Assembly (NCBI GenBank): GCA_042850255.1
Contig: AP031373.1
Coordinates: forward strand, 180,001-212,000
Direction: 5' to 3'
DNA length: 32,000 nucleotides
DNA from: Nanobdellota archaeon
GTDB lineage: Archaea; Nanobdellota; Nanobdellia; Nanobdellales; Nanobdellaceae
Part shown: one piece after another, positions 1,313 through 32,000 of the stretch
How positions within the stretch are numbered: position 1 is the first letter of the stretch
Layout: each line of letters begins with the position of its first letter
Translations under genes and position numbers: made by a program
Notes under the pieces: model-generated
Database searches by the model: none
Seen by the model: only the letters and a program-made list of their open reading frames with translations
Told to the model about the DNA's origin: nothing

Positions 1313-1325
1313 TTTTAATAATTTA

Positions 1326-1439
1326 GTGGGCGGGCTTCCGTGCTTTCCCGGCTTTCGCCAGTACTCACACGGACGTGGGCCGGCTTGACTTCCGTGTTCG
1401 AAATGGGAACGGGTTTTTCCCGGCCACTTTGGCCGCCCT
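1326..1439 (-). rRNA. rrf: 5S ribosomal RNA (orphan, not linked to 16S/23S in this window)
   Basis: GC-rich island. The reverse complement reads GGGCGGCCAAAGUGGCCGGGAAAAACCCGUUCCCAUUUCGAACACGGAAGUCAAGCCGGCCCACGUCCGUGUGAGUACUGGCGAAAGCCGGGAAAGCACGGAAGCCCGCCCAC. It contains the universal 5S loop C/helix III signature CCCAUUUCGAACACGGAAGUCAAGCC, and helix I pairs GGGCGG with CCGCCC. The ends are good to about 3 nt. Confidence 0.9.
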
Positions 1440-1466
1440 TAATTTTTTCTTATTTATGAATATTTT

Positions 1467-9000: not shown

Positions 9001-9435
9001 TGAGAATATTTTTGATGCTACAGAACCATCTGCAGATGCTATTATAGTTATATTATATGTACCTGGAGAATCCGTAGGATTTGGAGCTATATTTATATTA
9101 ACAGAACAAGAATCTGAACTTCCAGATCCACCAACAGGCGTACAACTTGGACCTTGAGGAGTATATTGACATATAACTCTTCCAGATTCATTAGGAGTTA
9201 TAGTACAACTACTTGGTTGAATATTACATGTAAAATATGGAGAATATTGACATGTAAATGTAACTGTAGTCTGAGAACTTACAATATCTGTAGCTGTTGC
9301 TATAGTATTTAATGTTTGGTTAGGATATGATGAACCTGAAGATGGGTACAGATTCAATGATAGTCCTTGAGAGAATACTCTATATGATAAAAAAGAAAAT
9401 GCAAACACTATAGAGAATATTAACACTTTTTTCAT
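6061..9435 (-). CDS. giant secreted modular surface protein (P1), 1124 aa
   Basis: Signal peptide MKKVLIFSIVFAFSFLSYRVFSQ. One N-terminal and four C-terminal Cys-containing Ig/CARDB-like modules of about 110 aa (LSLTL.PSSGSSSPGGSAS...FSC.APS..SCSFP.G..C...C...SSS..PGTY.VTI...FTYTVQQSS). A poly-Asn tract spans aa 151-207. Two copies of an unknown domain of about 190 aa (aa 208-403 and 432-622) are joined by an SPSPSPSPSPPPSPSPSPGPSPS linker. The C-terminus is weakly hydrophobic. Confidence 0.9.
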   Translation of the reverse strand: MKKVLIFSIVFAFSFLSYRVFSQGLSLNLYPSSGSSYPNQTLNTIATATDIVSSQTTVTFTCQYSPYFTCNIQPSSCTITPNESGRVICQYTPQGPSCTPVGGSGSSDSCSVNINIAPNPTDSPGTYNITIIASADGSVASKIFSYTIEGSSNNSNNNNNNSNNNNNNNNNNSGGNNSNNNNNNSNNNNSNNNSGGNQPSNNNQNSNFEVIGYGYNDIDSINGNTVLSLSLPSGASIYICNAGGSPTLSSVSWNVQQESSVPGTLGNLIYTSLGYQNSGECSINVPYLGSSYFYGFSLGGIAIVTDENYTFQGTTYYFGSQSQSTSYNYNVNEPSNVVISVACGYSSCSSINVPSGCQVLVDNSDLNSLGTSFIAVCYNQSPGTYQVSISNPNGIASIGIYEFSSSSPSPSPSPSPPPSPSPSPGPSPSNSGFSIVGYNSTTYNTGSPGPISESISLPSANLYLCNGATSNYPFSSVSWNVQESEQDFSSLGYQSSNVCSATVGSATESGYFVTIGGVAIDTNENYIFQGTTYDQQGKFSYSYTLNTTSNVVISLACGNYGCTSINVPSGCQVLVDKSDPYYFTTSFFAVCYNQSPGTYTISGNYLSASALGLASLGIYEFPSSNSSTNSTNQTSSPLSITLNPSSGYSSPGGSASTEAVVNVVTSGYTHLRFSCNAPSGISCLFPDGNNAYVDHSTTIDWPVNISSSSNTPSGTYNITVTVSGYINGQSQSASATFTYTVQQSSSQSPLSLTLNQSSGSSSPGQSLYISAEAVYSLGGHQKITFSCSAPSNDGISCSFPYGNYCYISHTGTGYPGECNVIVDISSSSNTPSGTYTVTISASTNGYSSSQSFSYTVQQSSNNQPPSSNNQLSLTLSPSSGSSSPGGSASTTADVSSSTLSTGTRVDFICNAPSGFTCSFPDGKYCTIYSGSCSIPINITSSSSVSPGTYSITIEAFAHTGTSSTVSTSSTFTYTVQQSSSSEVGLSLSPSSGYSSPGGSAYTQAVASLTKKLGNYDEVQFSCSAPSNDGISCSFPNGNICYIKYSSCGESVKISSSSSTPVGTYTVTITASVYVGQNLIGSASQEFTYHVKYSRPGNLASSLGSIASTITSIASSIVNTIMHII
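8143..8226 (-). repeat. Ser/Pro dipeptide-repeat linker (locally GC-rich) inside P1
   Basis: Encodes SSSPSPSPSPSPPPSPSPSPGPSPSNS between the two copies of the ~190-aa domain. Confidence 0.9.
8815..8985 (-). repeat. imperfect AAT/AAC trinucleotide tract encoding poly-Asn (aa 151-207 of P1)
   Basis: The plus strand reads (ATT/GTT)n with interspersed AGA and TCC. It translates as SSNNSNNNNNNSNNNNNNNNNNSGGNNSNNNNNNSNNNNSNNNSGGNQPSNNNQNSN. Confidence 0.95.
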
Positions 9436-9444
9436 ATTATTTAG

Positions 9445-9465
9445 AGATATTTATAAATTTATAAA
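9445..9465 (-). promoter_or_regulatory. putative promoter of P1: TTTATAA-N8-ATATCT, 9 nt before the ATG (leaderless-type spacing)
   Basis: On the coding strand this reads TTTATAAATTTATAAATATCT-N9-ATG. The TATA lies within a perfect 16-nt palindrome, TTTATAAATTTATAAA (9450-9465). The same architecture occurs upstream of P2, of gene 13027 and of the small ORF 19526. Confidence 0.5.
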
Positions 9466-12312: not shown

Positions 12313-12346
12313 TTATCTAAATATATAAATAAAATTATTAATATAT

Positions 12347-12430
12347 GCCGCGGTGCCCGAGTAGACTAAGGGGTCTGGCTCGAGACCAGATCCCCGAAAG
12401 GGGGCGTGGGTTCAAATCCCACCCGCGGCG
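12347..12430 (+). tRNA. tRNA-Ser (anticodon CGA), class II with long variable arm, no encoded CCA, no intron
   Basis: Acceptor stem pairs GCCGCGG with CCGCGGC, discriminator G. Anticodon arm is TCTGG-CTCGAGA-CCAGA. Variable arm is CCCCGAAAGGGG. T arm is GTGGG-TTCAAAT-CCCAC. Confidence 0.93.
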
Positions 12431-12966
12431 TTAAATAATTTTTCAATATCTTCTTCTATTTTTCTCAAATTTTCTCCTAAATTATATATACTATCCCTAC
12501 CTTTTACAGTAATTAAATTTTTATCAACATAATAATCATAGTTTGTTATTAATTTTACACCAGAATTTTGGAAATATTTTAAATATTCTGGATATTCATC
12601 ATAGTTATATACTATTGTTTTTCCAACTAATAATCCTGTCCTTAAAAATGCTATTTGAGATAAAGAAGATAATATAACTGTTCTATAAGAATTTATAAAT
12701 CTTGTAAATATTGCTTGTGTTTCTACATCCATAAAATCTTTATAACCCTTATCTGCAATAAATATTAATCTATCAAAATGATTTTCCTTCATTAAAAATA
12801 TTTCATGAATATCAAAATCTGGTAATACTTTACTTTTATATTTTCCAATACCAATTTCTCTATCTTTTATCGCAATATAATTTCTTCCATCTAATATATC
12901 TAAGAAATTAAATAAATCATCCTCATCAAATCCTCTTCTTGGCAATATTATTAAATTCATTTTCAT
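12412..12966 (-). CDS. DJ-1/PfpI-like (class I glutamine amidotransferase-like fold) protein lacking the nucleophile Cys
   Basis: The pattern MNLIILPRRGFDEDDL...FDRLIFI...RTVILSSLSQIAFLRTGLLVGKTIV...YVDKNLITVKG parallels PfpI (yDalvlPGG...vaaiChgp.vL..agllkGkk...vvDgnliTsrg). The protein contains no cysteine at all. Its last 19 nt overlap the 3' end of tRNA-Ser on the other strand. Confidence 0.45.
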   Translation of the reverse strand: MKMNLIILPRRGFDEDDLFNFLDILDGRNYIAIKDREIGIGKYKSKVLPDFDIHEIFLMKENHFDRLIFIADKGYKDFMDVETQAIFTRFINSYRTVILSSLSQIAFLRTGLLVGKTIVYNYDEYPEYLKYFQNSGVKLITNYDYYVDKNLITVKGRDSIYNLGENLRKIEEDIEKLFNAAGGI

Positions 12967-13026: not shown

Positions 13027-14700
13027 ATGCCAGATATTAAATTTGATGATATAAGGAATGAAAAAATTGAGGATAATAAACATAAATTATTGGAAATAAA
13101 ATTAATATTTGATAATCCAAATATAAAGTTTGAACAGATGTATTTTTGGTTATTAGATTTTATTAGAGATAGTTTAAAATTAAATGTTAGTAAATTATCA
13201 GATGAGTTCACATCTTCTGTAGGTTCATTATTTTTTGGAGAAATGAGTCAAAGAGCTTCTGCAGTATTAAATACTGCAAGATCTTTAGGAGAATTATTTA
13301 ATACGTTGACAAGATCTATAATATCAATATTAAGCGAATATAAGCAAATACAATCAAGGGTTGTATTATATGAAAAATTATTATCAAATGATAAAGATGA
13401 AGCATATAGTGCTTATTTAACATTAAAAGATCTATGGATAAATAATGTTGATTCTAATAGAGGAGGATCTAGTTTACTAAATATATCAAGAGGTAGATTA
13501 GGATTTGCAACTGCAATAGATTTATTTTATTTGGAAGAATTAAAAAATGAATTAGAAAAATTAAAAAATAAAGGAATAATAGGGGAAGCTTTATTTAATA
13601 AAATATTTAATGAACCTTCTCATATACCAAGGGATTTAGAAGAAGCAAAAAATAAAAATATAATAAGTCAACCTGTATATAATGTTGTAAATATAAGATT
13701 ACAAGAATTTTATAATTGGTTAGAAATTAATAGGAAATATTTATATGATAGAAATAATTTACTAAAATCCTATTTAAGACATCAGCTAAGTGCTTTATTA
13801 TATTATATAGAATTTGCAAAACCATATTTTAAATTTGCTAGAAAATTATTACAAAATCCTGAACAACCTGTAGATGTTGTAAATGCATTTGAAACTGCAA
13901 TAATAAATCTAACTTTGGTATCTATAGGAAAAGAGAATAATATAAAAGAATTTAATGAAAAGGAAGGAAAAGAAGAGGAAAAGATATATATACCAATGTA
14001 TGAGATAAATATATCTGCAAGGGCATTACCTACAGTAGTAAGTAGATCTGGAGGAACTAGTATGTATACATTTATTGGTAGAGTAGATATATATTTAAGA
14101 TCATATATTTTAGAAAAAAGTGAATATGAAAGTATATTAATAAATCAGGAAGCTGAAGATTTATTATATATTACTGGTTTAACTGAAGATTATGTAAAAG
14201 ATATGGCGGATATTATATTGGAGATGTTTTTATATGATATAATAAAAAATGATGAAAATTTATTAAAAACTGTTGCTGAAAAATCTGGAGCAACACCTGA
14301 AGAAATAAAAAACAATCCTTATAAAATAAAGTGGACAAGAGAATTATTGGAAGAATTAGAAAAAAATGATAAAATAAAAAAAGCATTGGGAAGTATAAGA
14401 TGGATAAAAAAATATTTAGAATCTGAGAAAAAGGATCAAAAAAAGGAAGAAAAGAAAGAAGAGAAAAAAGAATCTGGTTTAAAATTTATATTTCCTACAT
14501 TTTCAGATATATTCATGTATTTATTTCAATTTATTACAACTTTTAGAAAAGATTTGCATTCTATAGAAAAAAATATAAAAAAGAAAAATATAGAAAATGA
14601 AAAGAAACAAGCTATGGATGATTTCAAGGATAAAACAATTGATACTGCATGGAAAATATATATGACATTTAAAAAGACATTTAATATGTTAAATTATTAA
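13027..14700 (+). CDS. hypothetical protein, 557 aa, mostly helical; no family recognised
   Basis: Long uninterrupted ORF with genome-typical composition. It has a K/E-rich tract KKDQKKEEKKEEKKES followed by a hydrophobic segment GLKFIFPTFSDIFMYLFQFITTF (aa 484-506). No signal peptide. Confidence 0.8.
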   Translation: MPDIKFDDIRNEKIEDNKHKLLEIKLIFDNPNIKFEQMYFWLLDFIRDSLKLNVSKLSDEFTSSVGSLFFGEMSQRASAVLNTARSLGELFNTLTRSIISILSEYKQIQSRVVLYEKLLSNDKDEAYSAYLTLKDLWINNVDSNRGGSSLLNISRGRLGFATAIDLFYLEELKNELEKLKNKGIIGEALFNKIFNEPSHIPRDLEEAKNKNIISQPVYNVVNIRLQEFYNWLEINRKYLYDRNNLLKSYLRHQLSALLYYIEFAKPYFKFARKLLQNPEQPVDVVNAFETAIINLTLVSIGKENNIKEFNEKEGKEEEKIYIPMYEINISARALPTVVSRSGGTSMYTFIGRVDIYLRSYILEKSEYESILINQEAEDLLYITGLTEDYVKDMADIILEMFLYDIIKNDENLLKTVAEKSGATPEEIKNNPYKIKWTRELLEELEKNDKIKKALGSIRWIKKYLESEKKDQKKEEKKEEKKESGLKFIFPTFSDIFMYLFQFITTFRKDLHSIEKNIKKKNIENEKKQAMDDFKDKTIDTAWKIYMTFKKTFNMLNY

Positions 14701-14725: not shown

Positions 14726-16804
14726 ATGGATGATAAAGAAAAGAAGTATCCTCAAGAATTATTTAATAGACCTATATCTACAAGTTCGAATCCAAATATA
14801 ATAAATCAATTACAAGCCTTTATAGAAAAAGTAAGGGCAGGATATCCTGGAGTAGAAGTACAAACATTTAGATTTGAAGAACAGTGGGCTAGAATACCAA
14901 AAATGATATTTGAAGAAATTGCAAGATCTGCTAAAATAAATAATATAGAACTATCTATACATGCTCCAGAAAATGATTTTCAAATATCTGGAATAAAAGA
15001 TGTAAGACAACCAATTAATGAAGAAGCTAAAAAAGATGCTGCATACAAAATTTCTTCAGTATTAGAAGGTGGAGAACTTATGGGACAAATATATGGAAAA
15101 CCAATAAAAGTAAATATGCATGGAGGAGATATACCACTAACTCAATGGGATAAAGAATTTGAAGAAAGAGTGAAAAATAAATTATTGAATGACCCAAATT
15201 ATAGAAGACAATTTGCAGAAAAATTATATAGATTAGGATTTATAACACAGGATCAATATAATCAATTAATACAAAATAATATCAACAGAGATATTTTAGA
15301 AAAAAATGTACCATCATGGGCATTTGCAAGATCTGAAGCTATATATTACAAAATAAATGGAAATTATGAATTTGAAGGTTTATTATCACCATATGAAAGA
15401 GGATTTCAAAGAGTTTTAAGAGAAACAGGAAGAGAAACAGAAGGAGAAATAAGAACTATAGTAGATGATTTATATGATAGGAATGAAAAGTTTTGGATAG
15501 ATGTATTTAATAATATAGATAAGCAATTTTCTGAATTATTATATAAATATCGTAGAAATTTAAACAATTTTGTACAAAATTTATATACTACTGCAGGATT
15601 TGCTTCTGTTTATCAAAAAGGTATAGGAGAATTTATATTTGATATAAAAACATATAGAAATGTTTTAGAGGAGGTAAAAAGATATATAGATATAATAAAG
15701 GAGAATATAGGAGATATAAAAGATCAAAGATTGAGAGAAGAATCTTTAAATAATATAAATAAATATGAAGGATTATTGAATAGTATTATAGACGGATTAA
15801 AAAATTATGAGAATAGATTATCAGAATATGCAAAGGATGCAATGCTAAATACAAATAGTGAACAAATAAGAGATTACTTATTAAATGAAGTAGATAATAT
15901 TGCAAAATATATTGAATCTTCATCTGATATAGTGAAATTATTAATGTATAATATGAAAACTAGTATATTTGCTGATAAAATAATACCAGTAGCATATCCA
16001 TTTCAAGAAGTAGCTACTAAAGTCGGGGCAGAAAATATTGCAGAAGGAGTAAAAATGTTAATTGAAAGAGAAAAAGCTAGAGATCCTGAAAATTGGTATA
16101 AAAATATTGCACAATATTTACCAGATATTATAATAGAAGAATCTTATCCAGGTACTCCGGGAACAAGACCTGACATATGGAAAAATTTATTAAATAATAT
16201 AAGAGAAGAATTAAGAGAAACTATAAATCAATATCCTGAATTAAAAAAGGAAATAGAAAAACAATATGGTAGCGTTGATAATTATTTAAAATATAAAGTT
16301 GGTGCTAATTTAGATGTAGGACATATAAAAATGTTTGAAAAATTTGGTTATAATAAAGAAGATATATTAAAATGGGTAGAAGAGATTAAACCTGAAATAA
16401 AACATTTACATTTGCATGAAGCTCAATGGGGTACTGATACACATTTACCTGTAGGATTAGGATGGGATAATGTTATAGCTGAAGAATTAGAAAAAATAAA
16501 GGATATATTGGGAAATATATCTGTAGTACACGAACCTGGTGGATGGTATTCTTATCAATTTGCAGAATCTTATGGAAATGAATATTCATATTATTTACAG
16601 GGTGTAAATCCTACAAATGTATATGGTCCATTATATGGTACAGGAGTATTTACATTTACTCCATATGGAGGTGTACAACTTGTCCCTCAATATATACAAT
16701 ATACTCAATATTCTCCATATTCTTATAGTATATTTACTCAATTACCACTAGATTTAGGAGGAGGTAAAAAACAACAAACATTTACTGGAGAAAAATTAGA
16801 TTAA
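14726..16804 (+). CDS. AP-endonuclease-2 / xylose-isomerase-like TIM-barrel protein (Endo IV-like ligand set) with a ~330-aa insertion and a Tyr-rich tail
   Basis: Motifs in order: LSIHAPEN (H79), KVNMHGGD (H132), IIIEESYPG (E471), NLDVGHIKMFEKFGYN (D530/H533), IKHLHLHEA (H562/H564), DTHLPVGLGWD (D571/H573), VVHEPGG (E603). This mirrors E. coli Nfo as I remember it: HDSYLINL, NFHPGS, VIENTAG, CIDTCHAFAAGYD, MHLNDA, DRHHSLGEG, LILET. Confidence 0.7.
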   Translation: MDDKEKKYPQELFNRPISTSSNPNIINQLQAFIEKVRAGYPGVEVQTFRFEEQWARIPKMIFEEIARSAKINNIELSIHAPENDFQISGIKDVRQPINEEAKKDAAYKISSVLEGGELMGQIYGKPIKVNMHGGDIPLTQWDKEFEERVKNKLLNDPNYRRQFAEKLYRLGFITQDQYNQLIQNNINRDILEKNVPSWAFARSEAIYYKINGNYEFEGLLSPYERGFQRVLRETGRETEGEIRTIVDDLYDRNEKFWIDVFNNIDKQFSELLYKYRRNLNNFVQNLYTTAGFASVYQKGIGEFIFDIKTYRNVLEEVKRYIDIIKENIGDIKDQRLREESLNNINKYEGLLNSIIDGLKNYENRLSEYAKDAMLNTNSEQIRDYLLNEVDNIAKYIESSSDIVKLLMYNMKTSIFADKIIPVAYPFQEVATKVGAENIAEGVKMLIEREKARDPENWYKNIAQYLPDIIIEESYPGTPGTRPDIWKNLLNNIREELRETINQYPELKKEIEKQYGSVDNYLKYKVGANLDVGHIKMFEKFGYNKEDILKWVEEIKPEIKHLHLHEAQWGTDTHLPVGLGWDNVIAEELEKIKDILGNISVVHEPGGWYSYQFAESYGNEYSYYLQGVNPTNVYGPLYGTGVFTFTPYGGVQLVPQYIQYTQYSPYSYSIFTQLPLDLGGGKKQQTFTGEKLD

Positions 16805-19525: not shown

Positions 19526-19693
19526 ATGGATGGAAAAATTCTATCTAGCATAGTTATAATTGGTGGAACATTAGTAGAACTTTACTTATTATGGAATCCT
19601 AGTTTTTTTCAAAGTGAATATTTAAAGTTATTAGCAGGTAGCATAGTTGCTTTAGATGTTTTGGCACTTTTAGAAATTTTATTACATCTATAA
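19526..19693 (+). CDS. small two-helix membrane protein (55 aa); below the ORF-track size cutoff
   Basis: My translation: MDGKILSSIVIIGGTLVELYLLWNPSFFQSEYLKLLAGSIVALDVLALLEILLHL. It has two hydrophobic helices and a well-placed TATA, and it fills an otherwise empty 276-nt gap. Confidence 0.45.
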   Translation: MDGKILSSIVIIGGTLVELYLLWNPSFFQSEYLKLLAGSIVALDVLALLEILLHL

Positions 19694-19717: not shown

Positions 19718-19789
19718 GGGCCCGTAGTCTAGTGGTAAGATTCCGGCCTCGCTAGCCGGAGATCCCGGGTTCAAATCCCGGCGGGTCCA
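19718..19789 (+). tRNA. tRNA-Ala (anticodon CGC), no encoded CCA, no intron
   Basis: Acceptor stem pairs GGGCCCG with CGGGTCC and includes the G3:U70 Ala identity pair; discriminator A. Anticodon arm is CCGGC-CTCGCTA-GCCGG. T arm is CCGGG-TTCAAAT-CCCGG. Position 37 reads as T, which is unusual. Confidence 0.9.
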
Positions 19790-19867
19790 CTATTAAAAAT
19801 ATTTAATTTATTTTAGATAGAAATCTAAAATTATTTATATAAAATTAGTAATATAAAACTTCTATTT

Positions 19868-22800
19868 TTATATTAATATTAAAGCTATTGCAATTATTCC
19901 TACTAACAATGGATATAATATATTTTCTGATGCAACTAAGGATGTTGGAGATGAAAAATAATTTACTACTAAATTATATTGATAATTCAATACATTATCA
20001 TTATCTAAATCAAAACCTAGATATAATATAGAAGATCCTACATAAAATGGAAATGTTGCAAGTTGAACTATATAAGATTGTCCCGGTTGTAATGTTGGTA
20101 TATTTATATTTTCCACCTTATAAAGTGGCATATTATTATATAATATTTCTGGAATATTTCCCAATTGTTGCAAACTAATTGAAAGATTATTTATTGTTAT
20201 ATTATTACTAGTATCTGTTAAATTCAATATTAGGTAATAATATGGTATATTTAAATAAAAATTAAGTGTATTTCCCACAGGATAGATTCTTTGATTATTA
20301 TTTTCAGGAATTGCGTATATTTGTAATTTTAATATTTCAGATAGAAGTAAAATGTTAAGAGTATAAGTAGCTATGTATGATGAATAATTATTAAATGCTA
20401 TAACTTGTATACTATACGTACCTGAAGGAGTATATGTAGAAGAAGTTATATCAATTGGTATTGAACATGAAGTACTTGTAGTAGTACATGAATTACCTTG
20501 AGGGAGTGAACAATATACTCCAGAAGGTGGAGAAGAAATCTGTTGAATTGATATAGAGGGCATAACACCATTTGGTGGATATGCTCTCACTAAAGTCCAA
20601 CCAATATTAATCTCTGTAGAAACACCAGATACTCCATCAGTTGACGCTTGAAATAATAAAACAAAAGTATCAGAACTAGAACCAGTTACATAATTACTAT
20701 TTTGAACAACTCCATCAGGCCATAAAATATTAAAGGCAAAACCTGTGCTATTTAATATTTCTTGAACAATAAAAGTATAATCATAAACTGAAGATGAAGC
20801 AGGAACTACATATCCATTATAAGCTCCATTAAAGAATACTTCTGCCTGATTATAATAATTAGTTGATGAAAAAAGTCCATAGTCTCCATGACCCGTTTGT
20901 ACCATCCAACTATAGTAGTTCTGGTCTGCAATATCAGATACACTTGTAGCACTACTTAACCAGATATATTCTCTTGCTCTTATATCATCTCCAGATGATC
21001 CGTATAAATTTTCTAAAGTTTCCCATATAAATGGTTGTGATTGAGTAAATGTTTGCTTTGAATATATCCAAACTCCTCCATAGCTACCATTTCCTAAATA
21101 ATATAATTGAACTCCGTTGTCCACATTCATATAACCTGTTGAACCTGAGGGTATATATTCACCAGCAACCCATAAATCTGTATTCAAACTTGTTCCAGCA
21201 AAATTGTCATAAAACTCAAATACATATTGTCCATTATCATATATTCCATAATTTAGACATTGACTCATATTAGTATATCCTTCTTCATAACAATACCAAT
21301 ATGCGCTTACTCCAACAAATGGATAATATTGTTGATAATAGTTAGTAGAAGAAGGTCCTACATTCATATATATAGTAACCTGTCCATTTGCTGGTATTCC
21401 ATTAGGCAATTTTACCCACCAAACATCACAATATACTCCATTAATATTTTCCTGTCCCTCAAACCAGGAATATAACAAAGTAGTAGAATTGGAGAAATAT
21501 ACATTCTGACCATTAGAGTCTATTTCATTAAATAATGTAGGATTATCTACATATGCAAAATTATTACCTAAATTTACATTTCCGTTACATATTGCAATAT
21601 CTTGTTGAAATGGTGCTGGAGTAGGAATTGGTTGAGAATTTGTTATAGTTATTTGGTATATATTATTTAAATTACAAGAAAGAGTTATAGTTGTAGATGC
21701 ACCTCCTGGATTATATAGATTTGCTGTTGCTGTAGTAGATAAGGATCCTCCTGGATATGTATATCCTGATGAAGGATTTAGTATTAATGAAGTAATAGTT
21801 GGTGGTATTACATTTACAGTTATATTTATAGATCCTGAATTACCTGTAACTGTATCTGTTGCTGTTATTGTTACTGTATATGTTCCAACATTAGTAGTAG
21901 GAGATACGGATATATTTAATACCGCGGATCCTCCCGAACTTGTTGTATTAGGAGATATACTACAAGATAGTCCTGATGGAGCATTGCATGATAAACTTAA
22001 TGAATATCCATAATTATCTGATGCTGTTATTGTTGATATATTATAACTACCTTGGTATATAGTTAATGATGATGGAGATGCTGATACTGATATAGATTCT
22101 GAAGGAACTGTTACTGTAATGGTTGTAGAATTACTATTACCAGTAACTGTATCTGTTGCTACAATATTTATATTATATGTACCAGGAGAAGTACTGGAAG
22201 GTACCGATATAGTTAATGTAGAACTTGATCCTGAAGAAATAGTACTGGGATTAAAACTACAAGACCAACCAGATGGTAAATTACTACAAGATAAAGATAG
22301 AGAATATCCATAATTATCCGAAGCAGTAATTGTTGATGTATTAGAACTTCCTGGATATATATTTAGAGTACTTGGAGATGCCGATACAGAAATTGTTTCT
22401 GAAGGTATATTATATGTAAATGTTGCGGATGCTGAAGAAGCTGAAGTAGATCCTACAATTTGAATATTATAAGAACCTGGAGAAACTGATGTAGATGAAG
22501 TTATATTAATTGGTATTGAACATGAAGTACTTGTAGTAGTACATGAATTACCTTGTGGGAATGAACATGTAAATCCTGATGGAGTATTACATGAAAATGT
22601 TACTGTTGTAGATGCACCTCCTGGATTATATAGATTTGCTGTTGCTGTAGTAGATAAGGATCCTCCTGGAGCAGAGGAACCGGAAGAGGGATTAAGAGTT
22701 ATAGATGTAATTAAGACTGCTGGCTGAATTGAAAATGATGGCATAACACCATTTGGAGGATAAGATCTAATTCTTACCCAATATACCAGATAATTTTGTA

Positions 22801-23821
22801 GAGAAGCTTGTTGAGCAATTGTTATTGGTAATGTAGTATTAGAAGGTAATATTGTGGAAGATCCTACAGTAGTATAATTAATATAAAAATCAATAGTAGT
22901 AGAATTCAATCCTATTCCATATATTGTTGTAATATTATTATAATAAGTACTTCCTATAGTAGTATTTCCAGAATATAATTCAAATAATCCCGCATTACCA
23001 TTATTATTATAAGAAAATGCTGCTCCATCATTATTTCCTCCGACAGTTAATCCTCCTCCACCTCCAATGAAATATGTATATGTTGTACTTGCATTTCCTA
23101 TTCCAAATACTATTACATCAAAGGTAGTTCCTGAAGTTACTGGAATACTTAATTCTGCTTCAATAATATTATTTTGAATACTATAATTATTTGTTGTAGT
23201 TATTCCTGAATTACAACCATTTGAAGGTAATATTGTATAATCTGTACCAAAATTTGGAGAAACACTACAATATATTATGCTCCATCCCGAAGGCAAAGAA
23301 CTTAATCCTCCAAAGTTTTGGTAATAATTAAATACATAATTTCCATTATCATATTGAGAAGTACTTAATACTTGTATTGGGGCACCTACATATGGATAAT
23401 ATTGTGAATAATAATTGTTACTACTATTTCCTATATGCATATATATCGTATAATTACTATTTGCAGGAATTCCATTAGGTAATTTTACCCACCATACATC
23501 ACAATATGTTCTATTAAAGTTTTCCTGACCTTCATACCACGAATATAATAAAGAACCTGTAGGGTCATTTATATTAGTAAAGAAATATACATTCTGTCCA
23601 TTGGAATCTATTTCATTAAATAATGTAGAATTGTCTACATATGCAAAATTATTACCTAAATTTACATTTCCGTTACATATTGCAATATCTTGTTGAAATG
23701 GTGCTGGAGTAGGAATTGGTTGAGAATTTGTTATAGTTATTTGATAAATACTTTGAGAAAATATTTTGTAAGATAAAAATATAGATACTAACACTAATAA
23801 AAATATAGATATCCTTCTCAT
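19868..23821 (-). CDS. giant secreted modular surface protein (P2), 1317 aa: 2x DUF2341 + ConA/LamG-like lectin blocks, Ig/CARDB-like modules, C-terminal TM anchor
   Basis: Signal peptide MRRISIFLLVLVSIFLSYKIFSQ. DUF2341-like signatures appear twice (IYQITITNSQPIPTPAPFQQDIAI...NVYF...LLYSW.EGQEN...CDVWWVKLPNGIPAN...TIYM..G), each followed by a LamG-like YDNG.YVF..Y.NF.G region. Two tandem 100-aa modules span aa 473-672. The Cys-knot modules are shared with P1. The C-terminus is ILYPLLVGIIAIALILI. Confidence 0.9.
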   Translation of the reverse strand: MRRISIFLLVLVSIFLSYKIFSQSIYQITITNSQPIPTPAPFQQDIAICNGNVNLGNNFAYVDNSTLFNEIDSNGQNVYFFTNINDPTGSLLYSWYEGQENFNRTYCDVWWVKLPNGIPANSNYTIYMHIGNSSNNYYSQYYPYVGAPIQVLSTSQYDNGNYVFNYYQNFGGLSSLPSGWSIIYCSVSPNFGTDYTILPSNGCNSGITTTNNYSIQNNIIEAELSIPVTSGTTFDVIVFGIGNASTTYTYFIGGGGGLTVGGNNDGAAFSYNNNGNAGLFELYSGNTTIGSTYYNNITTIYGIGLNSTTIDFYINYTTVGSSTILPSNTTLPITIAQQASLQNYLVYWVRIRSYPPNGVMPSFSIQPAVLITSITLNPSSGSSAPGGSLSTTATANLYNPGGASTTVTFSCNTPSGFTCSFPQGNSCTTTSTSCSIPINITSSTSVSPGSYNIQIVGSTSASSASATFTYNIPSETISVSASPSTLNIYPGSSNTSTITASDNYGYSLSLSCSNLPSGWSCSFNPSTISSGSSSTLTISVPSSTSPGTYNINIVATDTVTGNSNSTTITVTVPSESISVSASPSSLTIYQGSYNISTITASDNYGYSLSLSCNAPSGLSCSISPNTTSSGGSAVLNISVSPTTNVGTYTVTITATDTVTGNSGSINITVNVIPPTITSLILNPSSGYTYPGGSLSTTATANLYNPGGASTTITLSCNLNNIYQITITNSQPIPTPAPFQQDIAICNGNVNLGNNFAYVDNPTLFNEIDSNGQNVYFSNSTTLLYSWFEGQENINGVYCDVWWVKLPNGIPANGQVTIYMNVGPSSTNYYQQYYPFVGVSAYWYCYEEGYTNMSQCLNYGIYDNGQYVFEFYDNFAGTSLNTDLWVAGEYIPSGSTGYMNVDNGVQLYYLGNGSYGGVWIYSKQTFTQSQPFIWETLENLYGSSGDDIRAREYIWLSSATSVSDIADQNYYSWMVQTGHGDYGLFSSTNYYNQAEVFFNGAYNGYVVPASSSVYDYTFIVQEILNSTGFAFNILWPDGVVQNSNYVTGSSSDTFVLLFQASTDGVSGVSTEINIGWTLVRAYPPNGVMPSISIQQISSPPSGVYCSLPQGNSCTTTSTSCSIPIDITSSTYTPSGTYSIQVIAFNNYSSYIATYTLNILLLSEILKLQIYAIPENNNQRIYPVGNTLNFYLNIPYYYLILNLTDTSNNITINNLSISLQQLGNIPEILYNNMPLYKVENINIPTLQPGQSYIVQLATFPFYVGSSILYLGFDLDNDNVLNYQYNLVVNYFSSPTSLVASENILYPLLVGIIAIALILI
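21546..21655 (-). repeat. 110-nt perfect direct repeat, copy 2 (start of second DUF2341 block)
   Basis: Base-for-base identical to 23634-23743 (checked by hand). Similarity above ~90% continues for about 60 nt further towards lower coordinates. Confidence 0.95.
21806..22405 (-). repeat. tandem duplication, 2 x 300 nt (two 100-aa Ig/CARDB-like modules of P2)
   Basis: PSETISVSASPSTLNIYPGSSNTSTITASDNYGYSLSLSCSNLPSGWSCSF... compared with PSESISVSASPSSLTIYQGSYNISTITASDNYGYSLSLSCNAPSGLSCSI...; the period is exactly 100 codons. Confidence 0.95.
23634..23743 (-). repeat. 110-nt perfect direct repeat, copy 1 (start of first DUF2341 block)
   Basis: Identical to 21546-21655. Confidence 0.95.
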
Positions 23822-23831
23822 AATACACCTA

Positions 23832-23852
23832 AGATATCTTCAAATTTATAAA
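23832..23852 (-). promoter_or_regulatory. putative promoter of P2: TTTATAA-N8-ATATCT, 10 nt before the ATG
   Basis: The coding strand reads TTTATAAATTTGAAGATATCT-N10-ATG. The 11-mer TTTATAAATTT and the ATATCT box are identical to those upstream of P1. Confidence 0.5.
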
Positions 23853-23897
23853 TACTATTAATAACTTAAGTAATTTTTACTTATTTTTATATATAAA

Positions 23898-26219
23898 CTA
23901 TGCAAATATTAAAAATGCTAAAATAGAAACAATTGCTATTAATGGTGATAATATACCTTCTGATACTTTAAGATATTGATTATTTGGAGCTGGTGGAAAT
24001 ATACCATATTCCAATAATTCATTGCCAATATAACTTCCATTAATTAAAAATTTAAATAAAAGATTACCGTTTCCAGTATTTATAGGTAAAATAAAAAATT
24101 TTATACTAACTGTTTGATTTGGATATAAATTACCAATATATATAGAATTGCTTTCATTAAATCTTGTATTATTATATACTAAAACCATAGGAGATAAACC
24201 ATATCCTTCTAAATTGTTTAATATATTAAATGTAAAATTACTTATAGGGTAATTACCTACATTAGTTAAATTTACTATTAATTCGTAAAATGGAATTCCA
24301 AGTAATAAACTTATATAATTTTGTACTTGGATTAATGTACCAGATTGGTTTAAAAATATTTTTGGATCTATTAAACCATAATATACAGGAACATATACTA
24401 ATATATCCTTATTAGAACATAATCCTACATTACTACATGATATAACATTTATAGATATTGTTTGTCCTGCATTATATGGTATATAAACACTGAAAGTATT
24501 TTCATTATATGTTATATTTGAATATCCATTGCTTGTTGTTATTGTAATATTATTTATTCCTGATAAAGCATATGAGGATACATTAAAAATTAGATAAGAT
24601 TGATTGTTAATTAAAGATGATCCTAAATATGTTATATTTATTGTTGGTGGATTACTATCTATTAATATATTATTTATACTTTGACTATTACATGTAGTTT
24701 TATTACAATATACTATTGTTAGATTATAAATTCCAGATGTTTTTAATAATTGTGTAAAATTATAGGAACTCAATGTAGTTGAGAAACTACTTTGATATAT
24801 TGGATTATTATTTGCATAAATAGTAAAGTTATTTATATTACTAAATGATGTATTAATTATTAAACCTGTAGTCCATGTTCCAGGAGTATATGTTTGTCCA
24901 TTTGTAGCTAATAAATCTATCGAAACTCCTGCTGGGGCAGAAGTAGGAGTTGTAGAAAATTGTATATTCGAACAGGAAAGAGTTGGGAAAATTATAGGAA
25001 GCATGTTTGTATTTTGGAAAATAAAAGCATTGGTATCAGTATATAGGAAATAATTTAATGTTCTGTGTATAACTATATTATTACTTTCATTAACGGCTAT
25101 AAAAACGGGAGAAAAAACGTCATAAATACAATTAATTGTTAGATTATCAATAATGTCATTAGAAATGCCTGAGAGACTTGTAGGTAGTCCAAATACATAT
25201 TCTGTTAAAGAAGCTAATATATCGGAGAACAAATTATTATTTATAGGAGATGAACGGAAGTAAATACCATAAGTGGAATTATAAATATAGATATTAGAAA
25301 ATGAATTGCTATTTACAGGAGATGAATAGAAGTAAATACCATAAGGCGAATTATATATATTTATATTAGAAAATGAATTATTAGATATGTCATAAAAAGG
25401 AGGAGAAGAAGAAGAATAAAGATATGAATAAATACCATAAGTGGAATTATAAATATAGATATTAGAAAATGAATTATTAGATACATCGGAATAAGCAGCT
25501 TCTGAACTAGAATAAGGATACAAATAAATACCATAAGTGGAATTATAAATATAGATATTAGAAAATGAATTATTAGATACATAGGCATTGGAATAATCAA
25601 AGCCATAAGAAGTAGGGTATAGATAAATACCATAAAGGGAGTTATATATATTTATATTAGAAAATGAATTATTAGATACATAGGCATAAGAAGTATAAAT
25701 ATTACTAGGAAAAGGAAGAGAAGAAGGAGGAGGCTCTGAATTAGAATAAAGATACAAATAAATACCATAAAGGGAGTTATATATATTTATATTAGAAAAT
25801 GAATTATTAGATACATAGGCATAAACATTATAAGAATTACTATAAATAGAAGGAGATAGATAAATACTAATATTTACATTAGATATACTTAAATTATTTA
25901 TAAATATATTTTCTAAAATTATATTACTAGAACCAGAAGAAATACTATAGTATATTCCATAAGTATCTGTATTTTCACCAGGACCGATTATCCAATATCC
26001 ATTTCCATCAATTATTACATTATTTGTAGCTATTTGTATACAATAATATATACCCAAAGTAGAATTATAAACAAAATTTGTTAAATTATTTGTTAAATAA
26101 TAAACACCTGGAGAACTTATTGTAATACCACAGGAAGATATAGGAGTTTGGGAATAAATATTATGATTAAATAAAAATCCAAATATTAATAATAACAATC
26201 CATATATAAACTTTTTCAT
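23898..26219 (-). CDS. secreted right-handed parallel beta-helix (PbH1/NosD-like) surface protein (P3), 773 aa, C-terminal TM anchor
   Basis: Signal peptide MKKFIYGLLLLIFGFLFNHNIYSQ. The N-terminal cap CGITISSPGVYYLTNNL...CIQIATNNVIIDGNGYWIIG is typical of archaeal beta-helix proteins. There are at least 6 coils of VSNNSFSNI(N/Y)IYNS.YGIY.Y, Ig-like middle domains and many N-x-S/T sequons. The C-terminal domain and the anchor (ILSPLIAIVSILAFLIFA) are homologous to those of P2. Confidence 0.88.
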   Translation of the reverse strand: MKKFIYGLLLLIFGFLFNHNIYSQTPISSCGITISSPGVYYLTNNLTNFVYNSTLGIYYCIQIATNNVIIDGNGYWIIGPGENTDTYGIYYSISSGSSNIILENIFINNLSISNVNISIYLSPSIYSNSYNVYAYVSNNSFSNINIYNSLYGIYLYLYSNSEPPPSSLPFPSNIYTSYAYVSNNSFSNINIYNSLYGIYLYPTSYGFDYSNAYVSNNSFSNIYIYNSTYGIYLYPYSSSEAAYSDVSNNSFSNIYIYNSTYGIYSYLYSSSSPPFYDISNNSFSNINIYNSPYGIYFYSSPVNSNSFSNIYIYNSTYGIYFRSSPINNNLFSDILASLTEYVFGLPTSLSGISNDIIDNLTINCIYDVFSPVFIAVNESNNIVIHRTLNYFLYTDTNAFIFQNTNMLPIIFPTLSCSNIQFSTTPTSAPAGVSIDLLATNGQTYTPGTWTTGLIINTSFSNINNFTIYANNNPIYQSSFSTTLSSYNFTQLLKTSGIYNLTIVYCNKTTCNSQSINNILIDSNPPTINITYLGSSLINNQSYLIFNVSSYALSGINNITITTSNGYSNITYNENTFSVYIPYNAGQTISINVISCSNVGLCSNKDILVYVPVYYGLIDPKIFLNQSGTLIQVQNYISLLLGIPFYELIVNLTNVGNYPISNFTFNILNNLEGYGLSPMVLVYNNTRFNESNSIYIGNLYPNQTVSIKFFILPINTGNGNLLFKFLINGSYIGNELLEYGIFPPAPNNQYLKVSEGILSPLIAIVSILAFLIFA
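25230..25829 (-). repeat. degenerate tandem nucleotide repeats encoding beta-helix coils of P3
   Basis: Recurrent units ATAAATACCATAAGTGGAATTATAAATATAGATATTAGAAAATGAATT and ATAAATACCATAAAGGGAGTTATATATATTTATATTAGAAAATGAATTATTAGATACATAGGCATAA. A 67-nt perfect repeat occurs at 25623-25689 and 25758-25824. Confidence 0.9.
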
Positions 26220-26277: not shown

Positions 26278-26445
26278 TTAAAAATTTATAAATCCTTCCT
26301 TCATCAAATTCTTTGCTTCCTTTCTAACTTTTCTAAAACATTGTATATGAAAAATCATTTTTTCTCCATTTACATTTATAGTTCTATATTTATCATTTTC
26401 ATATACTGGTTTATTACAATAGTTACATTTTCCAATTTCTTTCAT
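26278..26445 (-). CDS. small Cys/His zinc-finger-like protein (55 aa); below the ORF-track size cutoff
   Basis: My translation: MKEIGKCNYCNKPVYENDKYRTINVNGEKMIFHIQCFRKVRKEAKNLMKEGFINF, with a CxxC...HxxC arrangement. It lies divergent from fen across a 40-nt AT-rich spacer. The listed plus-strand ORF 26263-26463 is low-complexity and looks like its shadow. Confidence 0.5.
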   Translation of the reverse strand: MKEIGKCNYCNKPVYENDKYRTINVNGEKMIFHIQCFRKVRKEAKNLMKEGFINF

Positions 26446-31227: not shown

Positions 31228-31470
31228 ATGAAAAAGTCTGTTGTAGTATCAATAAGGATACCTGAAAAATTAAAGAAAGAATTAGAAAAATATAAAATAA
31301 ATCCTAAAGAGGCTTTTTATTTAGGGGCTGAATTATTGATAAATAAAGAAAAATCAAAAGAAGAAGATATTAGTATCAAAAAATATTATGAAAAAATGAA
31401 AGATAAATTTAAGAAAATAACAACAGAAGATATAGTTAAATCGATAAGAGAAGATAGAGGAGAAATATAA
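31228..31470 (+). CDS. ribbon-helix-helix-like antitoxin paralogue 1 (VapB-like)
   Basis: MKKSVVVSIRIPEKLKKELEKY is an RHH-type beta-strand plus helix. The C-terminus ITTEDIVKSIREDRGEI is shared with the next ORF. The track ORF begins at 31189, but the upstream TATA (TTTATAA 31197-31203) fits the ATG at 31228. Confidence 0.55.
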   Translation: MKKSVVVSIRIPEKLKKELEKYKINPKEAFYLGAELLINKEKSKEEDISIKKYYEKMKDKFKKITTEDIVKSIREDRGEI

Positions 31471-31491
31471 TTTAAAAACAGCATATTTGCT

Positions 31492-31785
31492 ATGGATATC
31501 GATAATATTGATATAGACAAGGATTTTGAAAAATTAAGAGAAAAATTATTAGCATATAATATAATAGTAATTAAAGTATTTCCTGATATAATAAAAAAGA
31601 TGAAAATATATAATATAGATCCTGAAGCTGCATTTATTACAGGATTTATGGAATTATTAGGAAAGAAGATTCCTAAAGATATTAAATTAAATATAGATAA
31701 AGATCCTGAATTATATAAGAAATTAAAAGAAATAAAAATAGAGGATGTTGTAAGAATGATAAGAGAAAGTAGGGGAGAAATATGA
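31492..31785 (+). CDS. antitoxin paralogue 2 (VapB-like), translationally coupled to the PIN gene
   Basis: The C-terminus IKIEDVVRMIRESRGEI parallels paralogue 1, and NIDPEAAFITGFMELLGKK parallels INPKEAFYLGAELLINK. The stop overlaps the ATG of the PIN gene (ATATGA). Confidence 0.55.
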   Translation: MDIDNIDIDKDFEKLREKLLAYNIIVIKVFPDIIKKMKIYNIDPEAAFITGFMELLGKKIPKDIKLNIDKDPELYKKLKEIKIEDVVRMIRESRGEI

Positions 31786-32000
31786 AAAGAGCAGATATAT
31801 ATATTTTTGATGCATCTTCAATCTATGAATCATTTATAAGCAATAATTATGGAATACTATATGGAAATATAACTTTAAACTATGCAATATTTGAATTGGG
31901 AAATATAATATATAAACATACAAATTTATTAAAAATATATGACTATCAAGAAGCCATAGAAGGAATGAAAAATATTATTAAAATATTAAGAAAAATGAAA
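31782..32000 (+). CDS. vapC: PIN-domain ribonuclease (VapC-like toxin), 5' part; runs off the window
   Basis: My translation: MKRADIYIFDASSIYESFISNNYGILYGNITLNYAIFELGNIIYKHTNLLKIYDYQEAIEGMK... It has the first acidic residue in the IFDAS context and the FELGN(I)IYK motif (yEvgNalwk) of archaeal VapC. Confidence 0.7.
   Translation, partial: MKRADIYIFDASSIYESFISNNYGILYGNITLNYAIFELGNIIYKHTNLLKIYDYQEAIEGMKNIIKILRKMK

Follow-up and report, generated by a model that had tools for sequence, protein, structure and literature searches.

The closest described relatives of the proteins considered here belong to Nanobdella aerobiophila MJ1, in which lectin-like and pectin-lyase-like genes were tabulated as putative cell-surface proteins from a survey of signal peptides (Kato et al., bioRxiv 10.1101/2023.10.27.564410). 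MJ1_0691 was modelled by AlphaFold with immunoglobulin (Ig)-like folds, a C-terminal helix and lectin domains. MJ1_0451, MJ1_0701 and MJ1_0776 are pectin-lyase-like and have 36-52 N-glycosylation sites. Kato et al. proposed that such proteins act in host recognition, attachment and degradation of the glycosylated host wall. Three genes that can be compared with these, called P1, P2 and P3, are found in a stretch of 32,000 nucleotides (nt) from another member of the Nanobdellota, the archaeon YN1 (contig AP031373.1). This whole stretch is referred to below as the window.

YN1 has a genome of 773,326 bp and is a cultivated obligate ectosymbiont of Sulfurisphaera ohwakuensis (Johnson et al. 2024, PMC11420986), in agreement with an earlier sequence-only reading of the window, which had taken its source for a reduced, probably host-dependent archaeon. 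According to the same paper, YN1 is firmly adherent, it grows at pH 2-3 only and on no host but S. ohwakuensis strains, and it forms a large attachment organelle in the shape of a cone, and the host's S-layer is breached at the contact site. YN1_5000 and YN1_2560 are put forward there as S-layer candidates, and the genes of P1, P2 and P3 are not mentioned. DPANN ectosymbionts recognise and hold a very narrow range of hosts.

P1, P2 and P3 are, on balance, best read as exported, acid-adapted cell-surface proteins that would help YN1 to grip its host, as stalk-mounted lectin or beta-helix adhesins binding the glycosylated host envelope. This reading builds on export signals, topology elements, domain homologies, membership of a modular family, replacement of cassettes, orthology to MJ1 proteins and viral homologues. 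The lectin-like and pectin-lyase-like kinds of protein, and the host role proposed for them, were already known from N. aerobiophila. New here are the modularity of the whole family, the shuffling of heads and anchors, cassette variation (12 types) and homology to structural proteins of Sulfolobales viruses. Concrete candidates can be named in two cultivated symbiont-host pairs, those of YN1 and MJ1, within one modular family.

The three open reading frames (ORFs) were correctly delimited from the start: 6061-9435 (P1, YN1_2240), 19868-23821 (P2, YN1_2360) and 23898-26219 (P3, YN1_2370), all on the minus strand and together 9,651 nt, or 30% of the window. Their features are given below in amino acids (aa) and in window positions on the minus strand. 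Each protein begins with a Sec-type leader ending [IV][FY]SQ, and the near-identical ends noticed earlier are indeed present in the translations (FLSYRVFSQ in P1, FLSYKIFSQ in P2, FNHNIYSQ in P3). The leaders are longer than pilin class III signal peptides (short basic N-terminus, cleavage motif, hydrophobic helix), which were not found in P1-P3. Leaders and helices were assessed by sequence, hydropathy and AlphaFold2 (AF2) models.

In composition the three proteins stand apart from the 20 neighbouring ORFs. Charged residues (K+R+D+E) make up 5-6% of P1-P3 as against 27.7%, Cys 1.0-2.8% as against 0.3%, and S+T+N reach 35-41%. N-x-S/T sequons number 2-4 per 100 aa, compared with 0.52 in the neighbours. 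The earlier description of Ser/Thr/Asn-rich proteins with dense sequons holds for density and composition, but P1 and P2 have fewer sequons than their composition predicts (22 vs 33 and 26 vs 32) and only P3 has more (31 vs 23). The G+C content of the window is 20-33%. At third codon positions (GC3) it is 9.9%, equal to that of the neighbouring genes, so the higher G+C of P1 and P2 can be ascribed to amino-acid content and not to foreign origin.

P2 (1317 aa, 100% identical to an NCBI hypothetical protein) is a predicted membrane-anchored protein with two lectin-like heads, as mapped with phmmer against family members. Its signal peptide (aa 1-22, 23756-23821, hydropathy 2.19) ends IFSQ, and the [IV][FY]SQ ending is kept in P2 orthologues and in NV1_37, a protein of Nanoarchaeotal virus 1. 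Lectin-like head 1 follows (aa 23-366, 22724-23755); in it phmmer, AF2, Foldseek and clustering distinguish a conserved DUF2341 N-half and a variable jelly-roll half of the cluster-1 type. Next come four Ig-like modules forming the putative stalk (aa 367-722, 21656-22723), recognised from Pfam, phmmer repeats and the DNA repeats D10-D12, two of them with a 4-Cys motif. Lectin-like head 2 (aa 723-1088, 20558-21655) was delimited with phmmer and has a variable half of the cluster-4 type, as in NV1_37. A further 4-Cys Ig-like module (aa 1089-1160, 20342-20557) matches P2 aa 412-472 (phmmer, 4e-17) and four modules of P1. The protein ends with a conserved juxtamembrane domain, probably an Ig-like sandwich (aa 1161-1293, 19943-20341; 14 family members at 1e-34 to 1e-38), and a transmembrane helix without a basic tail (aa 1294-1317, 19871-19942; hydropathy 2.29), which is 75% identical to the tail of MJ1_0691. 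MJ1_0691 shares with P2 the leader, two DUF2341-type heads, Ig modules, C-terminal domain, transmembrane helix and genomic slot, and is its orthologue.

The sequence-only reading had named DUF2341 and LamG/ConA-like blocks. The DUF2341/ConA-like call holds, marginally: Pfam DUF2341 (PF10102) scores 25.2 bits in P2 against a cut-off of 23.4, a sum in which no single stretch passes. Among relatives the same family reaches 24.6 bits in YN1_2510 and a sub-threshold 19.5 in MJ1_0691, and PF10102 is precomputed for the database record of P2 and for many homologues. LamG found no Pfam match in P2. Other Pfam matches are PKD (27.8 bits) and NPCBM_assoc (24.3 bits).

Structure prediction adds to this. 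An AF2 model of P2 aa 23-480, built on a 38-sequence alignment, has a mean predicted local distance difference test (pLDDT) score of 63, with 80-87 in the N-half, a confident Ig module and values below 50 in much of the variable half. Foldseek matches it to the A-domain and B-repeats of Aap (1.9e-4), to SraP (probability 0.98) and to the L-type lectin domains of ERGIC-53/Emp47p, and also to a carbohydrate-binding domain, at probability 1.0 and template-modelling (TM) scores of 0.4-0.53; lectin domains of SasG, Pls and YwfG are further matches. Thus, at the level of fold, there is support of moderate confidence for the double-lectin call. The alignment of lectin heads shows a YDNG motif and aromatic residues that are invariant; as to carbohydrate binding they are suggestive only.

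The best matches among solved structures, the adhesins Aap/SasG/Pls and SraP of Gram-positive bacteria, resemble P2 in overall plan: an L-type-lectin-like head, a stalk of repeated beta-sandwiches and C-terminal anchoring. The similarity is structural only, at 9-14% identity, and no sequence relation can be detected between P2 and Aap/SasG/SraP. P2 also differs in having two heads, in the DUF2341 N-half, which has no counterpart in the Gram-positive adhesins, and in its predicted anchoring by a membrane helix rather than by LPXTG and sortase.

The two heads of P2 are themselves related at the DNA level. A 170-nt stretch is 96% identical between them (21493-21662 vs 23581-23750) while the flanking DNA is 79% identical, and this difference suggests a recent intragenic gene conversion.

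P3 (773 aa) carries a predicted beta-helix head on the C-terminal domain and anchor of the same family. The right-handed beta-helix head (aa 24-330, 25230-26150) was recognised from repeats, relatives, AF2 and Foldseek. It contains seven coils of the form NNSFSNI(N/Y)IYNS.YGIY.Y, visible in the DNA as 96-nt repeats. The middle region (aa 331-620, 24360-25229; tblastn; pLDDT below 50) consists partly of stalk modules common to the lectin proteins, and the C-terminal domain (aa 621-749) is followed by a transmembrane helix (aa 750-773; together 23901-24359), on the evidence of BLASTP to P2, phmmer, hydropathy (2.59) and an AF2 helix at 757-771. By tblastn, P3 aa 460-618 match the C-terminal part of the MJ1_0691 gene at 35% identity (2e-12), as does the P3 C-terminal domain (6e-13). 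Because these regions resemble MJ1_0691, P3 can be described as a beta-helix head joined to related stalk-type modules and to the family C-terminal domain and anchor.

The relatives of P3 are hard to find by ordinary means. A word-indexed homologue search returned only P3 itself, and low-complexity flooding caused the true orthologue to be missed. An exhaustive search gave 35 weak relatives at E <=1e-3, mostly to aa 10-130, and 7 of 10 tested have Beta_helix and/or NosD domains. It too missed the orthologue, whose cluster is represented by a 158-aa fragment, and the protein was recovered through cluster membership. This orthologue, BBL45843.1 of N. aerobiophila, has 908 aa and 40-45% identity over nearly the full length (5e-96), and carries the NCBI name "periplasmic copper-binding protein". 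It is probably the pectin-lyase-like MJ1_0701 of Kato et al., because it follows MJ1_0691 by ten in accession numbering and the 908 aa agree. With its 773 aa, P3 has fewer beta-helix coils than this orthologue.

The profiles of Beta_helix (PF13229) and NosD (PF05048) match neither P3 (E <=0.1) nor the 908-aa orthologue (E <=0.01). The beta-helix assignment of the first reading nevertheless holds, by transitive homology and by the AF2 model, in which pLDDT is mostly 85-98 for aa 20-325 and strands recur in regular triplets; the remainder is poor except for the C-terminal helix. The leading matches of the model in the PDB are all right-handed beta-helices: pectate lyase, polygalacturonases and phage tailspikes, the best at E 5.8e-3. 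A lectin-beta-helix fusion in MJ1_0776, considered as a functional link between P2 and P3, was dropped, the P3 head matching the C-terminus of MJ1_0776 at E 0.023 only.

A search with P2 retrieved 136 homologous proteins. About 13 of them, Nst1_264 included, are 749-860 aa long and simpler in plan, with a leader, a single head, Ig modules, the C-terminal domain and the helix. A motif-based scan, taking one genome per species, found 52 family loci in 11 genomes, 3-7 in each, and all these genomes are Nanopusillus, Nanobsidianus, Nanobdella or Nanopusillaceae. Many of the loci (among L003-L054) lie at contig ends of metagenome-assembled genomes, consistent with assembly breaks at repeated paralogous modules, and the size of the family is probably underestimated.

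Across the family, heads, stalk modules and anchors have been recombined, the anchor being either a C-terminal helix or a pilin-like N-terminus. An example of the second kind can be found in YN1_6470 and YN1_8890, which start with MKSISPIIATILLIVIVIAIAALLYAWLSG, a class-III-like, pilin-type N-terminus, and end in the family lectin head. The Pfam family Pilin_N scores sub-threshold in them (19.5-20.3 against 25.2 bits, at MKSISPIIATILLIVIV...). For the large secreted DUF2341 proteins encoded in type IV pilus loci of archaea (arCOG03508), a role as pilus-tip adhesins was predicted (Makarova et al. 2016), and the YN1 paralogues likewise join a DUF2341 head to a pilin-like N-terminus. P2 itself, with its leader of class-I type and its anchor at the C-terminus, is not a pilin, and there are no pilus genes in the YN1 window.

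Some details of these paralogues can be recorded separately. YN1_6470, YN1_8890 and YN1_3250 have a Cys-rich module nested in the lectin head behind the pilin-like class-III N-terminus. The first ~180 residues are nearly identical in YN1_6470 and YN1_8890, and YN1_3250 is 82% identical to P2 head 1.

Conservation within the lectin head is uneven. All invariant columns are confined to its two ends, ~145 residues at the start and ~15 at the finish. When the half between these was compared across 71 head domains, it fell into 12 clusters at >=35% identity, with at least four types in YN1 and three in Nanopusillus acidilobi. Between YN1 and N. aerobiophila or N. acidilobi, which live on other hosts, FEN1, GlgA, SecY and an aminoacyl-tRNA synthetase (aaRS) are 73-91% identical, the lectin N-halves 61-74% and the C-terminal domain 50-57%; the variable halves can be aligned only in their first 20-50 residues, and both lectin heads have variable halves of other types in N. 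aerobiophila than in YN1. Because the variable halves are unalignable while the N-halves and neighbouring genes keep 61-91% identity, the comparison indicates that the distal lectin half has been replaced as a cassette and not by gradual drift. In Nanoarchaeota from Yellowstone, external hypothetical proteins were reported to have a raised density of non-synonymous single-nucleotide polymorphisms (Jarett et al. 2018).

The lectin head also has homologues outside cells. NV1_37 aligns with P2 head 2 at 48% identity over 377 columns (3e-92), variable half included, and its variable half belongs to the same cluster. Searches by tblastn gave matches in 49 viral records for head 2 and in 38 for head 1, at E down to 1e-21 and 26-37% identity, with head coverage of >=80% in 10-11 records per search. 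By organism name and listed host these are Sulfolobales viruses: rudiviruses, betalipothrixviruses and SMV1/2. When the P2 model was compared with predicted viral structures, one Foldseek match was a 1311-aa protein (1.6e-26), which judging by its length is probably NV1_37. Further matches are TPX of TTV1, proteins from SEV1 and SPV2 and, at 2.6e-15, a DUF2341 protein encoded by Sulfolobales Beppu rod-shaped virus 1, the matches to these viruses spanning E 2.6e-15 to 8.8e-6. Neither the P3 head nor the Cys-rich module of P1 has a match in the viral records.

A case in point is the rudiviral ORF562/564 family (SIRV1 gp31, SSRV1 gp22), with relatives in SMV1/2, betalipothrixviruses, SEV1, SPV2 and TTV1 (TPX). 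Its proteins are homologous to the P2 head along the whole length of the domain, rudiviral homologues spanning 98-99% of head 1. Unlike P2 they belong to virions rather than cells and have neither an Ig stalk nor a C-terminal anchor domain. The rudiviral gene ORF562/595 is annotated "putative viral structural protein" and adjoins ORF1070, annotated as a putative minor structural protein, which we take to form the terminal fibres. The domain homologous to the nanoarchaeal lectin head lies in SIRV1 ORF562 (locus L055, 3320-5008) and SSRV1 ORF22-595 (locus L056, 3239-5026). To our knowledge, the role of the ORF562/564-family protein in the virion is not established. A limited literature search, which does not prove that none exists, found no paper noting the link between head and rudiviral protein.

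A bolder extension can be offered tentatively. The DUF2341 lectin-like head may be a shared module for recognition of the Sulfolobales envelope, probably exchanged between nanoarchaeal ectosymbionts and crenarchaeal viruses (rudiviruses, betalipothrixviruses, SMV-type). Its swappable distal half might then set the narrow host range of each symbiont, and P2 and its paralogues would be the host-specificity determinants of YN1. If the ligand is common, the homology would tie together two forms of parasitism on the same hosts, one viral and one cellular, and would provide a functional lead for a conserved, uncharacterised rudiviral protein. Together, modularity, cassette variation and viral homology make hypotheses of host specificity testable in the two cultivated systems, by asking whether the type of the lectin variable half follows the host.

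In the adhesin reading, P1, P2 and P3 would be exported by the Sec route, probably heavily N-glycosylated, adapted to acid and displayed on the YN1 cell surface. P2 and P3 would be type-I membrane proteins with the C-terminal helix in the membrane and the conserved Ig-like juxtamembrane domain just before it, and the Ig-like and disulphide-bridged modules would form a stalk that holds the head away from the membrane. The heads (two DUF2341/L-type-lectin-like ones in P2, a right-handed beta-helix in P3) would bind, and that of P3 possibly cut, glycosylated envelope components of the Sulfolobales host, allowing recognition and holding on in the way that Gram-positive cocci use lectin adhesins mounted on stalks. 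Pilin-like proteins would carry the paralogous heads. The host-interaction role suggested by the sequence-only reading is plausible in this light, and is what Kato et al. proposed for the N. aerobiophila orthologues.

Several points weigh against this picture. Pfam support for the P2 lectin domain is marginal, the low AF2 confidence falls in the variable half, where the specificity site is expected, and the Foldseek E-values are modest. P3 matches no Pfam family at E <=0.1 and no NCBIfam model, and none of its fold matches reaches E 1e-3 in Foldseek. P1 is without any head domain. MJ1_0691 ranks below 100th in the MJ1 transcriptome, where the S-layer genes rank 1st and 12th (bioRxiv 10.1101/2023.10.27.564410), and the N. 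acidilobi paralogues Nps_03070/75/80 have no abundance values in a shotgun proteome table (Wurch et al. 2016); poor tryptic detection is expected for such proteins, which in YN1 contain about 1% K+R. NV1_37, the closest viral relative, comes from a virus of nanoarchaea and fits binding to a nanoarchaeal surface at least as well as to a crenarchaeal host. Finally, the N-glycosylation, the stalk-and-head geometry, the binding of a ligand and the role in attachment are all inferred.

The best surviving alternative, though an unlikely one, would make P1-P3 structural proteins of the symbiont's own envelope, with membrane-anchored stalks whose heads bind its glycosylated S-layer as a SlaB-like tether or spacer, without host contact. 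The C-terminal helix and beta-sandwich stalk do resemble S-layer anchors, P1 is without an anchor as lattice proteins are, and the surface N-acetylglucosamine of N. acidilobi (Wurch et al. 2016) could be bound by a self-directed lectin. The head-2 type of NV1_37 points the same way, its virus having to bind nanoarchaeal cells. One would not, however, expect a housekeeping tether to exchange its binding half from one species to another, or to be kept in 3-7 variable copies, and the modest expression of MJ1_0691 differs from that of S-layer genes. The S-layer role that had been entertained for the three proteins is weakened as well. The published candidates YN1_5000 and YN1_2560 are other genes, homologues of MJ1_0160/MJ1_0707, and the P2 orthologue MJ1_0691 does not show the very high expression by which, along with orthology to those two, Nanobdellota S-layer proteins are recognised.

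More doubtful still is a chiefly enzymatic role, which would be compatible with binding. P3 would be a lyase or hydrolase of polysaccharides with a beta-helix fold, and the domains of ConA-like type perhaps glucanase-like enzymes, cutting S-layer glycans of the host where the attachment cone docks. The kinds of protein that lead the P3 fold matches (pectate lyase, polygalacturonases, phage tailspike depolymerases) would suit this role, as would the breached host S-layer at the contact site and the wall degradation proposed for the pectin-lyase-like MJ1 proteins. Yet those matches are all at E 5.8e-3 or worse, with Pfam silent, and the nearest sequence relatives of P3 are NosD-type proteins, not lyases. 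Asp and Glu are few in P3 (1.8% and 1.7%, together 3.5%) and its repeated coils contain no acidic residue, so that a typical acidic catalytic cluster is not evident. For the lectin heads, the best structure matches are lectins and adhesins, not hydrolases.

The three genes have several features in common. By BLASTP, the Ig/Cys modules of P1 and P2 are 50% identical over 134 aa (5e-13), and the last 146 aa of P2 and P3 are 32% identical (2e-6), the P3 C-terminus matching 13 family members at about 1e-11 to 1e-13. Both relationships had been noticed in the first reading, and the motifs quoted for them (IP(Y/F)Y..LI.NLT, the (N/G)IL(Y/S)PL tails and the Cys-module motif) are present in the translations. 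The identical nucleotides reported at 6621-6645 and 22501-22525 exist too, inside a 136-nt repeat family common to the P1 and P2 genes. Between P1 and P3, BLASTP detects nothing in common beyond the leader.

The promoter string claimed for P1 and P2, TTTATAAATTT-N4-ATATCT, occurs exactly twice, where shuffled sequences lead one to expect 0.02. The copies are TTTATAAATTTGAAGATATCT (23832-23852), TATA-like, 30 nt upstream of the P2 ATG, and TTTATAAATTTATAAATATCT (9445-9465), at the same distance from the P1 start codon. Upstream of P3 the 11-mer core TTTATAAATTT is found at 63-73 nt (26282-26292). The 21-nt string would fit a TATA box of near-leaderless transcripts. Directly upstream of P3 there is also a 55-aa ORF with CxxC...HxxC spacing, zinc-ribbon-like (26278-26445 (-)), whose 3' end is overlapped by the TATA-like core of P3. 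A clear homologue of this ORF stands between EF-2 and T2SSF in Nanobsidianus (locus L001, 5285-5455), where N. aerobiophila has its beta-helix gene.

When nine C-terminal domains of the family were aligned and compared with Pfam, only sub-threshold matches were obtained, mostly to Ig-like families (Transglut_C 6e-4, TRAPPC13_C 1e-3, CARDB 0.015, DUF7507 0.02). A profile of the domain had no match in the PDB. An Ig-like fold is consistent with these hits and would be our choice. The tails of P2 and P3 end in hydrophobic residues (...IAIALILI and ...LAFLIFA) with no basic residues. The suggestion that the (N/G)IL(Y/S)PL tail is a sortase-type signal is not upheld, the tails having no basic cluster of exo/archaeosortase signals and no NCBIfam sorting-signal match; an archaeosortase gene was not searched for in YN1. 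Neither an archaeosortase/exosortase sorting signal (PGF-CTERM and kin) nor an LPXTG motif is present in P2 or P3. At E <=0.1, NCBIfam has no match for P3, and for P2 only an unrelated, sub-threshold LapB repeat.

P2 and P3 had been taken for a two-gene system, but their adjacency is specific to YN1 and not conserved, the two orthologues in N. aerobiophila lying about ten genes apart. They are family members with a common anchor and stalk-type modules rather than a dedicated pair. The gene order in N. aerobiophila is EF-2, the 908-aa beta-helix gene, T2SSF, T2SSE, two small genes, RNase J, aaRS, GlgA, FEN1, MJ1_0691 and, further on, a KOW protein and SecY. In Nanobsidianus, Nst1_264 stands between RNase J and aaRS, and in N. 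acidilobi this place is taken by three paralogues in tandem (590/1052/1215 aa). YN1 has aaRS, GlgA, FEN1, P3, P2, tRNA-Ala, KOW protein, SecY. Within a single conserved neighbourhood, family genes are thus found in three different slots, and P2 stands in that of MJ1_0691. In the relatives family genes flank the T2SSE/T2SSF pair, and no homologues of a pilus ATPase/T2SSE, RNase J or EF-2 are found within the YN1 window. The other genes nearby are housekeeping ones: ribosomal proteins, TruD, two aaRS, SecY, FEN1 and a glycogen-synthase-like gene.

In the N. acidilobi tandem (locus L002, 7910-16883), the 1052-aa gene is near-identical in stretches to the 1215-aa gene and stops short of the anchor and the C-terminal domain that precedes it. 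This makes it either a pseudogene or a variant that is truncated or secreted.

A tRNA-Ala(CGC) gene (19718-19790 (+)) lies 78 nt from the P2 stop codon. That an integrated virus or mobile element carries P2 and P3 as its cargo, as viral attachment proteins or receptor decoys beside this tRNA gene, is highly improbable. The nearby tRNA-Ala, the homologues in NV1 and many Sulfolobales viruses and the other genes in this slot in Nanobsidianus would suit it, but no viral hallmark genes lie nearby, N. aerobiophila has a double-lectin orthologue in this slot, and all 11 genomes carry the family on the chromosome in several copies. A check of tRNA-Ala as an integration site found no partial tRNA copy or att-like repeat, and the mobile-element idea was rejected on the absence of such a repeat and on a GC3 equal to that of the neighbouring genes.

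P1 (1124 aa, 6061-9435) is exported and modular, with no lectin or beta-helix head and no clear transmembrane anchor. Its order is leader, Ig/Cys region, Asn/Ser-rich low-complexity stretch, two Cys-rich modules with an (SP)n linker between them, four Ig modules of the 4-Cys kind and a tail of weak hydrophobicity; in the hydropathy analysis only the N-terminal segment passes the threshold, and the tail does not. The two copies of the ~190-aa Cys-rich module (aa 206-425 and 446-645, 7501-8820) match each other at 8e-43. The four 4-Cys Ig-like modules common to P2 (aa 646-1092, 6160-7500) are supported by BLASTP, phmmer and the DNA repeats D2, D3 and D5. P1 had been grouped with P2 and P3, and the kinship stands for the leader, the promoter string and the Ig/Cys modules; it does not extend to head or anchor.

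The Cys-rich module of P1 is found nested in the lectin domain of YN1_6470, YN1_8890, YN1_3250 and MJ1_0776, and also in MJ1_0774 and a Micrarchaeia protein. Matches of P1 to Pfam Shr-like_HID and NCBIfam invert_tail were set aside as compositional; they lie in the Ser-rich Ig modules, and the NCBIfam one is below its cut-off. P1 contains a run of ~55 residues that are nearly all Asn, Ser and Gly (8821-8985 (-)), with DNA repeats of 15-nt period, and the (SP)n linker is at about 8101-8170 (-).

Elsewhere in the window, two Lys/Glu-rich ORFs of 557 aa and 692 aa (13027-14700 (+) and 14726-16804 (+)) have no family assignment. Their sole match is a sub-threshold one in the second ORF, to AP_endonuc_2 (a xylose-isomerase-like TIM barrel; 28.6 vs 31.1 bits). 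Where relatives carry RNase J and pilus-type ATPase genes, three short ORFs (31228-32000 (+)) are found in YN1 upstream of the class II aaRS; the last runs past the window end and is PIN-toxin-like by eye only. A 5S rRNA gene is found at 1325-1440 (-) and a tRNA-Ser(CGA) gene at 12346-12431 (+). Between the KOW-protein gene and tRNA-Ala there is a hydrophobic 55-aa ORF (19526-19693 (+)).

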